From Escherichia phage HK97, in the sequence record NC_002167.1: a DNA stretch of 39,732 nt. One strand, written 5' to 3'. Below are positions 3,348 through 28,955 of this stretch, in pieces (position 1 is the first letter of the stretch; each line of letters opens with the position of its first letter). Position numbers and translations under genes: made by a program. The notes under the pieces were generated by a model. That model made no database searches. It was not told the DNA's origin and was given only the letters and a program-made list of their open reading frames with translations.

Positions 3348-4025
3348 ATGCCTGAAATCGTAAAAACGCTGTCCTTCGACGAGACAGAAATCAAATTCAC
3401 CGGTGACGGGAAGCAGGGGATTTTCGAAGGATATGCCTCTGTTTTTAATAACACCGATTCCGATGGCGACATCATTCTGCCCGGGGCGTTTAAAAACGCG
3501 CTGGCGAACCAGACCCGAAAAGTGGCGATGTTTTTCAACCACAAGACGTGGGAGCTGCCGGTTGGTAAATGGGACAGTCTGGCCGAAGACGAAAAAGGGC
3601 TCTACGTTCGCGGTCAACTTACCCCAGGACACAGCGGCGCCGCCGACCTGAAAGCAGCAATGCAGCACGGCACGGTTGAGGGTATGTCGGTTGGCTTTTC
3701 CGTTGCGAAAGACGATTACACCATCATTCCCACAGGCCGGATTTTTAAGAATATCCAGGCTCTGCGCGAAATCAGCGTCTGCACTTTCCCCGCCAACGAA
3801 CAGGCTGGCATCGCAGCCATGAAAAGTGTCGATGGCATTGAAACGATCCGTGATGTGGAGAACTGGCTGAGGGATTCAGTCGGCCTCACCAAATCACAGG
3901 CAGTTGGGCTAATAGCCCGGTTTAAGTCAGCGATTCGGAGCGAGTCCGAGGGCGACGGAAACGAAGCACAAATAAACGCTCTGCTTCAGAGCATCAAATC
4001 TTTCCCTTCTAACTTAGGTAAATAA
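3348..4025 (+). CDS. prohead maturation protease (HK97 gp4-like)
   Basis: ORF between portal and capsid; start most likely ATG 3348 (G-rich SD upstream), giving about 225 aa; alternative in-frame starts at 3336/3345. Confidence 0.8.
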   Translation: MPEIVKTLSFDETEIKFTGDGKQGIFEGYASVFNNTDSDGDIILPGAFKNALANQTRKVAMFFNHKTWELPVGKWDSLAEDEKGLYVRGQLTPGHSGAADLKAAMQHGTVEGMSVGFSVAKDDYTIIPTGRIFKNIQALREISVCTFPANEQAGIAAMKSVDGIETIRDVENWLRDSVGLTKSQAVGLIARFKSAIRSESEGDGNEAQINALLQSIKSFPSNLGK

Positions 4026-4027
4026 TT

Positions 4028-5185
4028 ATGTCTGAACTCGCTCTCATTCAAAAAGCTATCGAAGAATCCCAGCAGAAAATGACCCAGCTTTTCGATGCGC
4101 AGAAAGCAGAAATCGAAAGCACAGGCCAGGTTTCCAAACAGTTGCAGTCCGACCTGATGAAAGTACAGGAAGAGCTGACCAAATCCGGCACTCGCCTCTT
4201 CGATCTGGAACAGAAACTGGCATCCGGCGCTGAGAATCCTGGTGAGAAGAAATCCTTCTCTGAACGGGCTGCTGAAGAGCTTATTAAGTCATGGGACGGT
4301 AAACAGGGCACCTTTGGCGCTAAAACGTTTAACAAGTCACTAGGCAGTGACGCTGATTCGGCTGGCTCACTGATCCAGCCTATGCAGATCCCAGGCATCA
4401 TCATGCCAGGCCTGCGCCGTCTTACCATTCGTGATCTGCTGGCTCAGGGCCGCACTTCCAGTAACGCTCTGGAATATGTGCGTGAAGAGGTGTTTACCAA
4501 TAACGCCGACGTGGTGGCAGAGAAAGCACTGAAGCCAGAATCGGATATCACCTTCAGCAAACAAACCGCGAACGTGAAGACCATCGCGCACTGGGTGCAG
4601 GCATCACGTCAGGTGATGGATGATGCGCCAATGCTTCAGTCCTACATTAACAACCGCCTCATGTACGGCCTGGCACTGAAGGAAGAGGGCCAGCTGCTGA
4701 ACGGCGACGGTACCGGGGATAACCTGGAAGGGCTGAACAAAGTGGCAACCGCCTATGACACCTCGCTGAATGCCACCGGCGACACCCGCGCTGACATTAT
4801 CGCTCACGCTATTTATCAGGTGACCGAGTCTGAGTTCAGCGCTTCCGGTATCGTCCTGAACCCGCGCGACTGGCACAACATCGCGTTGCTGAAAGACAAT
4901 GAAGGCCGCTATATCTTCGGTGGTCCTCAGGCATTCACCAGTAACATCATGTGGGGCTTGCCAGTGGTTCCGACTAAGGCGCAGGCCGCCGGCACCTTTA
5001 CCGTAGGCGGTTTCGATATGGCCTCACAGGTCTGGGATCGCATGGATGCCACCGTGGAAGTTAGCCGTGAAGACCGCGATAACTTCGTGAAAAACATGCT
5101 GACCATCCTGTGCGAAGAGCGTCTGGCGCTGGCGCATTATCGCCCGACAGCAATCATCAAGGGCACCTTCTCTTCTGGCTCATGA
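4028..5185 (+). CDS. major capsid protein, HK97 fold (gp5-like)
   Basis: 385-aa ORF that matches my recollection of the HK97 gp5 sequence (MSELALIQKAIEES...); directly follows protease. Confidence 0.9.
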   Translation: MSELALIQKAIEESQQKMTQLFDAQKAEIESTGQVSKQLQSDLMKVQEELTKSGTRLFDLEQKLASGAENPGEKKSFSERAAEELIKSWDGKQGTFGAKTFNKSLGSDADSAGSLIQPMQIPGIIMPGLRRLTIRDLLAQGRTSSNALEYVREEVFTNNADVVAEKALKPESDITFSKQTANVKTIAHWVQASRQVMDDAPMLQSYINNRLMYGLALKEEGQLLNGDGTGDNLEGLNKVATAYDTSLNATGDTRADIIAHAIYQVTESEFSASGIVLNPRDWHNIALLKDNEGRYIFGGPQAFTSNIMWGLPVVPTKAQAAGTFTVGGFDMASQVWDRMDATVEVSREDRDNFVKNMLTILCEERLALAHYRPTAIIKGTFSSGS

Positions 5186-24790: not shown

Positions 24791-25042
24791 TCAGAATGGA
24801 CACGGCCCAAGGAAATAACGCTGATTTAATACTTCGACTCGGGACAAATTAAGGCATACCAGCATTCCTTCGCGGTCGCCATTATGGCGATACCAGAGAG
24901 CTTTCTCGCGTGTGACATGCGTCTCTGTAACTTGCTCTCCTTCACTGTGGTTGCAAGTGACATGCATATCTCCTTCGTTACCGATTAATTCTTTCATCTG
25001 ACGAATGAATTCTTCGTCTGACCAGTTATCTGTAAAACTCAT
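24791..25042 (-). CDS. hypothetical protein upstream of erf
   Basis: 83 aa from ATG 25042, overlapping the kil stop (ATGA). Confidence 0.45.
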   Translation of the reverse strand: MSFTDNWSDEEFIRQMKELIGNEGDMHVTCNHSEGEQVTETHVTREKALWYRHNGDREGMLVCLNLSRVEVLNQRYFLGPCPF

Positions 25043-25190
25043 TTCCTGCGATACCACGGAAGGTTGATAGCTGATTTCATCGCTTTATTTGCTTCAAGCC
25101 ACATTTTTGAATCACCAATAAATCTGGCTATTACTGCTTTGTTCTGTGCAGCACGAAGCATCTGGTGATTAATGGCTATTTCATTGCGCA
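25039..25190 (-). CDS. kil: Kil-like host division inhibitor
   Basis: 50-codon ORF with SD GGAGG; …IARFIGDSKMWLEANKAM… resembles recalled lambda Kil; overlaps cIII-like 3' end as in lambda. Confidence 0.45.
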
Positions 25191-25310
25191 TAACGCCTCC
25201 AGTTGTTTCTTTGCTGCTCTGATTAATTGTTTAACTCGGCGTGATAATTCAGATTCGTGCGGGTAGAAAGCGGACATGACGCCGCTACCCGCGAGCTGAA
25301 AGTGCATCAT
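25176..25310 (-). CDS. cIII: cIII-like protein (FtsH inhibitor)
   Basis: 44-aa product from ATG 25310 with SD AGGAG; amphipathic helix ESELSRRVKQLIRAAKK resembles lambda cIII core. Confidence 0.5.
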   Translation of the reverse strand: MMHFQLAGSGVMSAFYPHESELSRRVKQLIRAAKKQLEALCAMK

Positions 25311-25376
25311 GGGTAACTCCTTATATTTGATTGCATAACGAAAACGCCTCGAGTGAAGCGTTATTGGTATGCATAT

Positions 25377-25400
25377 AAAAAAGCCCTCACACTGGAGGGC
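25377..25400 (-). terminator. intrinsic terminator in pL operon (tL-like)
   Basis: On minus strand: gccctc-cagtgt-gagggc followed by T6. Confidence 0.5.
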
Positions 25401-25504
25401 AAAGAAGATTTCCAATAATCAGAACAAGTCGGCTCCTGTTTAGTTACGAGCGACATTGCTCCGTGTATTCACTCGTTGGAATGAATACACAGTGCTTATT
25501 CGTA

Positions 25505-25975
25505 CTAATAAAATACCCAATTTTCTGTTTCTTGGTTGTGCCCAAAGTTATATTCAATATCTGGTGTTGATGTATCAATATTCTTCATCCCATCAACAAG
25601 AGTTGATACAACAGCCAAATCTTGTTTGATTCTCATTAAATGGTATTTCTTCCGGCGCAATAAACTCTCAATGGCAAGTTTCTTCGTTGGGAATGCAAAA
25701 GATCTTTCTGCATTTTTTGCTACTTTCTTAATTGCATATCTATTTCTCCTTTGTTTCCATTCCTGTAACCACTGATTTGGTGCTGGTTTAAAATTAATAA
25801 TCCAATGCGCAGGAACCAACCATGCATAATGCTCTGTCTGATGAAAAGCTATATATTGAAGTGCGAATATTTTTATCCCATCTTCTTCAACTGTCGCCTG
25901 GAATCTCCAGAAAACAGGCATTCCATCATGTTCAGTTTCTGATTCAGGAAAAGGTACGCTCCATGATTTTGTCAT
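25505..25975 (-). CDS. hypothetical protein (AT-rich orphan in pL operon)
   Basis: 156-aa ORF with SD GAGGTG; markedly AT-rich compared with neighbours; no recognisable family. Confidence 0.6.
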   Translation of the reverse strand: MTKSWSVPFPESETEHDGMPVFWRFQATVEEDGIKIFALQYIAFHQTEHYAWLVPAHWIINFKPAPNQWLQEWKQRRNRYAIKKVAKNAERSFAFPTKKLAIESLLRRKKYHLMRIKQDLAVVSTLVDGMKNIDTSTPDIEYNFGHNQETENWVFY

Positions 25976-26033
25976 ATCTCACCTCAAATAAGTGGTTTGC
26001 TGCCTAATTTCATTTTCTGGCGACCAACACAAG

Positions 26034-26417
26034 TCACCTTGCTGTCAGTTGTTTTGATTTCCTGTAGCCTGCCGCGTAAAGAGCTACATTTGGAAGACAT
26101 ACACCAGTTTCTGGTTGCCTATGCCCAAACTCATTCGCGTACACAATGGCCGCTCTCTCCAGATTGCGTCTGTATTCTTTCTGTTGCCAGATCACGTCCT
26201 GTGCCATGAACTTAATTGGCTTAGCGTCTTCTATGCGCTCAGGCGTTTCGTGAGTACCTTTAGCCTGAATCTGCGCTCTGCTTAGAGTAGGGCGGTGTAA
26301 TACTTCTGAACTTATTGCTTCTTCGCGGGCCAGTACGCCGTTAGCTAATGCCTTTGCCTTTAAACGCTCACGACGACGAGAACGTGAATTGCCTTTGAAC
26401 TGAGTTCTGCGTGTCAT
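26034..26417 (-). CDS. N-like transcription antiterminator (P22 gp24-like)
   Basis: 127-aa ORF with SD GGAGG; N-terminal Arg-rich motif (RRTQFKGNSRSRRRERLKAKA); C-terminus LPNVALYAAGYRKSKQLTAR resembles recalled P22 N; first gene after pL. Confidence 0.7.
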   Translation of the reverse strand: MTRRTQFKGNSRSRRRERLKAKALANGVLAREEAISSEVLHRPTLSRAQIQAKGTHETPERIEDAKPIKFMAQDVIWQQKEYRRNLERAAIVYANEFGHRQPETGVCLPNVALYAAGYRKSKQLTAR

Positions 26418-26582
26418 ATAGACCTCCTGATGAACTTTGGTGGTGTGGTAGGTGGGAGACCCATTTCGACCTGTTTCGGCCTACTTCAATTCGGCAATAG
26501 TACCGCAGGCCTCGCCGCTTTACGTGCGACATATTCCCGTCCATGAACCCTTCACCACACCCCAAAGTTCACTTTGGTTATT

Positions 26583-26597
26583 GCGCTTTGTCAGCGC
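26583..26597 (-). promoter_or_regulatory. nutL boxB hairpin (P22-type)
   Basis: Leftward transcript would carry GCGCUGACAAAGCGC, which I recall as the P22 boxB; lies between pL and N. Confidence 0.5.
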
Positions 26598-26663
26598 CGT
26601 AGATTCATATTCGAATCGTTGTATATCACCGCCCTGGTGAGTAGTGCGTCCTGCTGATGTGTT

Positions 26664-26726
26664 TAGTATCACCGCCAGTGGTATTTATGTCAACACCGCC
26701 AGAGATAATTTATCACCGCAGATGGT
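26664..26726 (-). promoter_or_regulatory. OL1-OL2-OL3 operators with pL
   Basis: TATCACCGCCAGTGGTA, CAACACCGCCAGAGATA, TATCACCGCAGATGGTT match recalled lambda OL1-3; pL -35 TTGACA and -10 GATACT on the minus strand. Confidence 0.85.
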
Positions 26727-26908
26727 TATCTGTATGTTTTTTATATAGATTTATTTTTTTTGCAGGGGTGTGTGGCTTGGGAGGTGATCGAGAGATCTGA
26801 ATTGCGATGTTTAGTGAGTTGTATCTATTAATTTTCAAATAAATACAATTGGTTATGTGTTTTGGGGCGAACGTGAGGCAAAGAAACCCCGGCGCGGTGG
26901 CCGTTTAT

Positions 26909-27559
26909 TTATTGCTTAGGAGCTTGTTGTGATGACGATTGGTTAGTTGGAGCGCTCGTTAATGGTTGCTGTGTCGGTACCTGTATTATAATTGGAGCCG
27001 GGCTGGTTACTGATGGTGACTTGTCATTGCCGGAGATAATCCAACTTGAGGCTAACATCACGCCAGACAGAATCACAGTAACTAAAGTCAAGCCAACGGC
27101 CATCGCCCACTGAGTCGTTGTAAGTCCCGTTTTCAAACCGCCGATTTCACCTTTAATTTCAGCAATACCTCTCTCAATAGAAGAAAATTGCTGAGTATAA
27201 TAGGTTTTAAAGTCAGCTGATTCGCGACGCATTTCCGCAGCAATAGACTCTACCTCTGATTTGTTTTGTGAAAGCTTTGCGTCAAGTTCTTCTCTGGACA
27301 TTCCGCTCACGCTTACCTCCAGGGTATCACTCTTCATCGCTACATCTTCCTTACTTGGGCGCAAACCCGTTTCGTCCATGGCGTATGAAACTCTATTTGA
27401 TACCTTAGCATCAATACCAATACTTTGGTACTGAGATGGATCCCCATAAGGAGAAACGGTTGTCGCTGCTAGGGTTGCACTAACTATAATACTTGGAAGA
27501 ACTGATGATGTTGTTCCTGAGGTAGGTTGAACTGAAGAAACTGGCTTCAGTCTTTCCAT
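26909..27559 (-). CDS. membrane-anchored coiled-coil protein (rex-position module, gene 3)
   Basis: 216-aa ORF; start overlaps upstream stop by 13 nt; central charged helical region, single TM (WAMAVGLTLVTVILSGVMLASSWII), Pro/Ser/Gln-rich C-terminal tail. Confidence 0.6.
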   Translation of the reverse strand: MERLKPVSSVQPTSGTTSSVLPSIIVSATLAATTVSPYGDPSQYQSIGIDAKVSNRVSYAMDETGLRPSKEDVAMKSDTLEVSVSGMSREELDAKLSQNKSEVESIAAEMRRESADFKTYYTQQFSSIERGIAEIKGEIGGLKTGLTTTQWAMAVGLTLVTVILSGVMLASSWIISGNDKSPSVTSPAPIIIQVPTQQPLTSAPTNQSSSQQAPKQ

Positions 27560-27813
27560 AGCCCATTATCCCTGAGAGCTACCTGTAATGATTTTACTAA
27601 TGCAACAGCTTGATCCGGGCTCATTGAGACTGACATGTTAGGGGTCAACTCAACTTTTACTTGGAAGCTATTATTTCCTTGCTCATCAGACTGCATGTGA
27701 TGCTCAAATTCATGGCGGTAAAAAGTAATGATTGTTTCAGCACGATCAGGCGTAATAAGAACTGATGTGGCGGTCATGTGCTGAGGTATGATTTTAATAG
27801 TGTTATCTGACAT
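27547..27813 (-). CDS. small soluble protein (rex-position module, gene 2)
   Basis: 88 aa from ATG 27813 with SD aagga 7 nt upstream (frame stays open to ATG 27954, which lacks an SD); AT-rich. Confidence 0.5.
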   Translation of the reverse strand: MSDNTIKIIPQHMTATSVLITPDRAETIITFYRHEFEHHMQSDEQGNNSFQVKVELTPNMSVSMSPDQAVALVKSLQVALRDNGLWKD

Positions 27814-28005
27814 AAGTATCCTTTTTGTTTCCTTAGTATTTTTTTGCATTGACATCAGAAATAGCGAATCCACAAGAGTATGAGTAAAGCTAATCAGTTT
27901 AGTGATACGGTGACTATTAAAGTGGTAAACCACATCAAAGCTCGCAGAGTGCATACCAGGCTGTCACACATGACAAAGTAACGAGGATGCCTGATCTCAT
28001 AGCGC

Positions 28006-28238: not shown

Positions 28239-28955
<717 letters not shown>

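Follow-up and report, generated by a model that had tools for sequence, protein, structure and literature searches.

Gene 45 of phage HK97, an accessory gene of the early-left operon and a candidate for an early host-directed function

Between the antiterminator gene N and cIII, the early-left operon of phage HK97 carries a small gene, gene 45, whose product belongs to a widespread family of phage proteins. Its place in the operon suggests that this product, gp45, is probably made at the very start of lytic development without the need of N. Judged from its sequence, an early host-directed function is a reasonable candidate. We tentatively propose that gp45 is an immediate-early accessory protein which, by binding to a conserved component of the host, counters its defences or helps to take it over. 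Our confidence in the host-directed reading is kept limited because gp45 resembles no known anti-defence factor.

Gene 45 is found in HK97, in the prototype Shiga-toxin (Stx) phages 933W, H-19B and Phi24B, and in about one in ten complete E. coli genomes. Its product has nevertheless been a 'hypothetical protein' ever since the genomes of HK97 and the Stx phages were sequenced. The placement before the first early-left terminator would put gp45 among the first phage proteins made. If the proposed counter-defence or takeover role is true, gp45 would define a new protein family and fold, and it could affect the host range and the induction of Stx phages. The sequence itself is already catalogued as HK97 gp45, 933W L0079 and PHROG 1636, and the slot is the known lambdoid accessory region between N and cIII. 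Compared with the literature searched, the breadth of the family, a confident fold without a solved relative, the exact boundaries of the cassette and the recurrent order of N, gp45 and first terminator appear to be new.

Gene 45 and its slot in the early-left operon

Positions refer to the window, i.e., the whole stretch of 39,732 nucleotides of HK97 DNA that was analysed (NC_002167.1). Gene 45 occupies 25505..25975 on the minus strand, from an ATG start to a TAG stop according to the ORF list and the sequence, and encodes 156 amino acids (18.6 kDa, pI 9.1). Along the operon, the order is pL, N, 58 nt with an SD sequence, gene 45, a hairpin, two terminators and cIII. The operon is driven by a pL-type promoter, TTGACA-17 nt-GATACT, at 26665..26693 on the minus strand (10/12 in a consensus scan), the equivalent of which is annotated in HK106 as 'similar to coliphage lambda PL'. 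The N gene (26034..26417, minus strand, 127 aa) is of the H-19B/933W type, as indicated by the 933W annotation and by a match to phrog_271, 'anti-termination protein N-like' (E 3.8e-38). In the spacer between N and gene 45 (25976..26033, minus strand), sequence and scan place the SD GAGGTGA at 25985..25979, 3 nt ahead of the ATG. Neither a promoter-like nor a terminator-like site was detected in these 58 nt by a minus-strand scan. The sole terminator-like pattern within N (26115..26103), with 5 bp and without a genuine T-run, is at chance level.

Downstream of the gene, the conserved 3' flank of the slot starts with a 12-bp hairpin, GUGUAUUCAUUC-CAAC-GAGUGAAUACAC, at 25463..25490 on the minus strand, 14 nt past the stop codon. 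The first intrinsic-terminator-like hairpin, which is tL1-like, follows at 25375..25400 (minus strand). It consists of GCCCTC-CAGTGT-GAGGGC at 25400..25383, then TTTTTTAT; as RNA, this reads GCCCUC-CAGUGU-GAGGGC with the tail UUUUUUAU. The same sequence is annotated as a rho-independent terminator in HK106. Scan and fold point to a second terminator-like hairpin at 25343..25362 (minus strand), with an 8-bp stem followed by UUUCGUUAU. The next gene of the operon is cIII (25176..25310, minus strand, 44 aa), whose equivalents are annotated as such in HK106 and 933W. The first-pass annotation had described an ORF of 156 aa with a good SD directly after N, upstream of a tL-like terminator and more AT-rich than its neighbours, and all of this is borne out. 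Indeed, the GC content of gene 45 is 0.361 (GC3 0.287) against 0.498 in the whole window (36% versus 50%) and 0.44-0.50 in the flanks.

As an observation in its own right, the region from 25335 to 25510 (176 nt, minus strand) folds far above shuffled controls (z = -5.1). Its 12-bp hairpin is perfect and is kept in HK106 and 933W whichever ORF precedes it. A scan of 25200-26800 against Rfam, which included this hairpin region, gave no match. Besides its part in tL, the structured region may be a recombination flank, an RNA-processing site or a stabiliser.

The comparison with HK106 defines an exact cassette slot, since this phage swaps an unrelated ORF between identical flanks. HK106 and the window are identical from N through the SD and the ATG; the identity breaks exactly after the shared ATG and is found again just past the stop, through the hairpin and terminators to cIII. 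The occupant of the slot in HK106 is an ORF of 83 aa (phrog_2471; L011, 5800..6051), which has no BLASTP similarity to gp45 and is annotated as similar to VT2-Sakai Sap20. HK106 gp42 was considered as a truncated gp45 and rejected, the two being unrelated. Ahead of gene 45, HK106, 933W and the window share an identical spacer, the ATG included. 933W shares with the window the stretch from N via gp45 to the first terminator, and diverges directly after the T-tract. In HK544, the slot holds Ral and an ORF of 322 aa, and in E. coli prophages it holds Ral, SieB, DUF7446, DUF2528 or Nmad5-like genes. Related phages and prophages therefore bear out the earlier suggestion that gene 45 sits in the same variable early-left slot as genes of the Ral, SieB and Ea10 type. 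The gene is absent from lambda, HK106 and HK544, and the exchange of the slot is independent of the recombination module (HK106, HK544). Taken together, the comparisons indicate that gene 45 is an accessory cassette gene which the early-left operon of lambdoid phages can do without. The natural swap between HK97 and HK106 offers a ready-made isogenic comparison.

Gene 45 shares some features with morons. Its base composition is deviant, and a downstream terminator is present in the hairpins 25400..25383 and 25362..25343, which may simply be the operon's tL. A promoter of its own was not detected, as a consensus scan of the minus strand showed nothing like a sigma-70 site within the spacer or close to it. 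On this criterion, gene 45 is outside the definition of a moron.

The position ahead of the terminators is seen in more than one lineage. In the window and in 933W, the gene 45 homologue follows N and precedes the first predicted terminator. In L014, the stop of the N-like gene is at 3993, the start of the homologue at 4001 and the terminator at 4470-4487; the corresponding positions in L015 are 3998, 4001 and 4479-4496. These two loci belong to other lambdoid lineages, and their N-like proteins (96 aa and 76 aa, respectively) look dissimilar, each with an arginine-rich N-terminus. In all, the order of N, homologue and first terminator recurs in three lambdoid lineages, whose N proteins are dissimilar. 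A virulent contig of the Jersey-like group has the homologue as the first gene behind a strong sigma-70-like promoter site, TTGACG-17-TATAGT. The immediate-early placement is not universal, because other layouts exist: terminator-like hairpins stand between N and the homologue in a Cronobacter prophage, and the homologue adjoins xis-int, just before it, in Pectobacterium and Brenneria prophages. The terminator calls are of the intrinsic type, rho-dependent termination not being readable from sequence. As the first intrinsic terminators come after gene 45, synthesis of its product is expected from the outset of infection or induction, ahead of N-dependent read-through. In lysogens, pL is repressed, and since no promoter-like site lies between N and gene 45, cI should repress the gene. 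The presence of family members among the early genes of virulent phages suggests that the function serves lytic growth.

A widespread family of phage proteins

The protein had been regarded as an orphan without a family, which does not hold. Its sequence is identical to HK97 Gp45 (AAF31125.1, UniProt Q9MCQ6) and matches phrog_1636 over its whole length (E 4.8e-112, residues 1-156 against profile positions 1-156). The 933W counterpart, L0079/ST933Wp19 (NP_049479.1), is about 99% identical, and the H-19B protein is 98.7% identical. 933W, Phi24B, Min27, BP-4795 and numerous other Stx1 and Stx2 phages are about 99% identical in DNA sequence, the four named ones also in protein sequence. Among 5426 complete E. 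coli genomes, 559 (about 10%) carry the gene, counted where at least 80% of a 751-nt query spanning gene 45 was present. Database entries for its relatives in HK97, 933W and other phages are all labelled 'hypothetical protein' or 'unknown function', and a search of the published literature yielded no study of gp45, L0079 or PHROG 1636. A 'gp45' mentioned in an OLD preprint was rejected as the same protein, as it belongs to phage HK578.

Full-length homologues (n=22) range from 55 to 99% identity and share 40 invariant columns. Those at 55-85% identity come from metagenomic phage contigs and from prophages of the genera Pectobacterium, Brenneria, Cronobacter and Rosenbergiella. An exhaustive profile search extended the family to 87 proteins at E<1e-3, most of them 130-155 aa long, aligned over nearly their full length and about 20-25% identical. 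These distant relatives fall in PHROGs 13631, 25384 and 28215, all labelled as of unknown function. Distant members used as single queries against viral contigs gave little yield. Among the Jersey-like virulent relatives are the Salmonella and E. coli phages NX263 and Bas81. Gp069 of Pantoea phage LIET2 is a true member of the family (hhalign probability 99.8%); LIET2 gp064 was rejected as a paralogue of gp45, since hhalign shows no relation. Other virulent phages with relatives by family or fold are N4-like phages of Pseudomonas and Delftia, Vi1-like phages of Erwinia, and phages of Vibrio, Brevundimonas, Tenacibaculum and Cellulophaga.

Gene 45 is a real gene and not a chance ORF, as seen from the invariant columns of its 22 homologues and from a dN/dS of 0.17 against a homologue of 84% identity. 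In more distant pairs, synonymous sites are saturated, and pN is only 0.1-0.27. Substitution patterns thus point clearly to purifying selection. The GC content lies below that of the host locus in all nine homologues checked.

Two homologues in virulent Jersey-like phages deserve mention, L013 825..1295 (84% protein identity) and L010 4001..4477 (63%). Both are the first gene of a small operon amid structural genes, ahead of a ParB-like protein and, in Bas81, also of a RusA resolvase. The L013 copy has 36% GC, the same as HK97 gene 45, and together with the 84% identity this points to exchange between temperate and virulent phages. The equal GC content suggests that this exchange was recent.

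Sequence features and predicted structure of gp45

The fold of gp45 was predicted with AlphaFold2. With a deep alignment, the model reached a pLDDT of 95.7 and a pTM of 0.82. It supersedes an earlier model from 22 close sequences (pLDDT 62.9), for which a Foldseek search of the PDB was uninformative. In the predicted structure, long beta strands at residues 19-30, 33-46 and 50-55 and a further strand at 83-86 are combined with two short helices and one of 33 residues at 98-130, and the C-terminal tail is ordered. The secondary structure of the model contains no transmembrane segment. The whole protein is basic (pI 9.07), and its charge is unevenly distributed: residues 1-60 have a pI of 5.0, residues 61-125 a pI of 11.1 with 17 K/R, and residues 126-156 a pI of 4.05. 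According to the model, gp45 is a compact protein in which an N-terminal beta-sheet domain of acidic character is followed by a strongly basic centre, with the long helix at its end, and by an acidic, aromatic C-terminal tail.

Several residues are conserved across the distant superfamily, namely R24, G33, E/Q46, T47, K87 (100%), A101 (100%), K109 and a C-terminal aromatic residue at 155. The basic residues R24, K87 and K109 are kept down to about 20-25% identity. Glu46 is replaced by Gln in the HK97 subfamily, which suggests a binding protein more than an enzyme. The conserved basic residues and the core of pI 11.1 fit a conserved, probably nucleic-acid-related, target.

The remote-homology and structure searches which the first-pass annotation had proposed matched no characterised family and no solved structural relative. 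Neither gp45 nor any of 51 family members matched Pfam or NCBIfam; Pfam scans of these members were run at E<=0.01 and at E<=10, and no recurring family emerged. The PDB contained no match to gp45 by sequence or by profile search, and the PADLOC defence models gave only a noise-level hit (Cas1_II, E 0.009, 13 bits). Nuclease or recombinase motifs or families were not found in gp45. Weak resemblances of the model all concern small Tudor/SH3/KOW-like beta domains, for instance PipX and the C-terminal domain of UvrD/PcrA. The predicted fold of gp45 is considered confident, without a solved relative.

Possible functions of gp45 and observations on neighbouring genes

In the proposed mechanism, gene 45 would be transcribed from pL together with N, the first terminators lying only beyond it, and gp45 would be produced at the onset of infection or induction, independently of N. 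It would then bind a conserved host macromolecule, either a nucleic acid or a nucleic-acid-handling machine. This binding may blunt the interference of the host with the incoming phage, as counter-defence or as takeover.

The genomic setting offers several points of comparison. The ral-containing accessory region of coliphages is a source of counter-defence genes and of Abi triggers (bioRxiv 10.1101/2023.04.06.535777). Silas et al. (bioRxiv 10.1101/2023.04.06.535777) also show that the gop-beta-cII abortive system is set off by another gene of the ral region, orf184. The identity of gp45 with orf184 was considered and rejected, as orf184 is a different protein, starting MEALVVERSEDGYW. A look for gp45 in the set of 200 accessory genes that Silas et al. 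screened was negative; neither of two peptide strings from the protein occurs in the supplementary tables. With lambda Ral, SieB, Ea10/DUF2528, DUF7446 and orf184, gp45 shares the slot in the pL operon, the exchangeability between near-identical flanks, the accessory status and the AT-richness. Nonetheless, gp45, at 156 aa and basic, has no sequence relation to any of them. Moreover, gene 45 lies upstream of the first terminator-like hairpins, unlike lambda ral, which is located beyond tL1. T7 Ocr (gp0.3) and ArdA are likewise small, non-essential and promoter-proximal in an early transcript made by host RNA polymerase. These two are strongly acidic DNA mimics; gp45, in contrast, has a pI of 9.1 with a core of pI 11 and matches them neither by HMM nor by fold. 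Being basic, gp45 is not an acidic DNA mimic. A weak resemblance of its model to PipX and to the C-terminal domain of UvrD/PcrA, which are Tudor/SH3-like and dock on RNA polymerase or regulators, is the nearest likeness in fold. Sequence and profile comparisons revealed no similarity to a characterised anti-restriction, anti-defence or takeover protein, and gp45 stands outside every characterised anti-restriction or defence family.

Other functions have to be weighed against an early host-directed one. The recurrence of gp45 homologues directly after three dissimilar-looking N proteins, with gaps of 2-7 nt in two lineages that suggest translational coupling, could be explained if gp45 modulated early phage transcription together with N. 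As a nucleic-acid-binding or RNA polymerase-associated protein, it might act on termination or antitermination at tL, or protect N or its mRNA. The conserved basic surface is in line with such a role, as are the weak fold resemblances to Tudor/SH3/KOW-like domains such as the RNA polymerase-binding C-terminal domain of UvrD/PcrA. We consider it rather unlikely, as gp45 is missing from HK106 in spite of the identical N, and homologues are also present in virulent phages that lack N. The basic central region would also suit an auxiliary protein in the recombination, repair or replication of phage DNA, serving as a DNA-binding partner or a nuclease modulator, and such a role fits the position of gene 45 near recombination genes equally well. 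Erf, Abc2 and SSB-like genes lie further down the operon in the window. Elsewhere, the neighbours of homologues include a ParB-like protein and RusA (Jersey-like phages), RecE (a Vibrio phage), YqaJ and xis-int (Brenneria) and dexA (Erwinia phage Bue1). The association is a weak one, because such genes abound in the early regions of most phages. Given also that gp45 has no nuclease or recombinase motif or family match and that the cassette is exchanged independently of the recombination module, a part in DNA metabolism seems improbable.

Exclusion is among the functions named earlier for genes at this position. SieB is found at the corresponding place in lambda and in E. coli prophages, and the low GC content and the downstream terminator of gene 45 are moron-like, which would agree with a SieB- or Rex-like gene that is expressed from the prophage and shields the lysogen. 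Such a gene should be active in lysogens, yet gene 45 has no promoter-like site upstream and its operon promoter is repressed there. The lack of a PADLOC match above noise and of a transmembrane segment in the model points the same way, and close homologues (63-84% identity) reside in virulent Jersey-like phages. Exclusion is therefore very unlikely. It is barely conceivable that gp45 is a decaying or selfish passenger without a function for the phage. The gene is indeed dispensable and missing from several relatives, but a dN/dS of 0.17, 40 invariant columns in 22 homologues and a family recognisable at 20-25% identity in many phage groups argue against decay.

The reading tentatively preferred here, i.e., that gp45 binds a conserved host target early in infection, can be carried further, to a broader proposal that we regard as doubtful. 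Gp45 might found a widespread phage family with a new fold and be a third immediate-early product beside N and Cro in several lambdoid lineages. It might affect a conserved machine of the host in a novel way during the first minutes of infection, also in the clinically relevant Stx phages. Examples of such a machine would be RNA polymerase, termination factors, proteases (Lon, for instance) or a defence that senses nucleic acids.

Some observations were made on the genes around the cassette. Between cI (28239..28952) and pL, the window contains two overlapping ORFs, which together span 26909..27954 on the minus strand. The ORF at 27547..27954 (minus strand) encodes 135 aa and belongs to phrog_26809; the one at 26909..27559 (minus strand) encodes 216 aa with a hydrophobic stretch near the C-terminus and belongs to phrog_5820. 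Lambda has rexA and rexB between cI and pL. The ORFs of 135 and 216 aa are candidates for exclusion or defence genes expressed in the lysogen. At the same position, HK106 carries HicAB and another ORF, and HK544 two other ORFs.

On the far side of cIII, an ORF of 88 aa at 24791..25057 (minus strand) matches two small PHROGs labelled 'recombinase', phrog_2123 over residues 6-56 and phrog_1723 over residues 31-88. It looks like a fusion or an overlap of two short genes that are annotated separately in HK106 and in Sf6 (genes 29 and 30). Furthermore, the window joins an immunity of the lambda type, with lambda-like pL hexamers at 26665..26693 and a cI that we take to be nearly identical to lambda cI, to an N of the H-19B/933W type. 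The two parts of this mosaic must meet in the nutL region, somewhere between pL and N.
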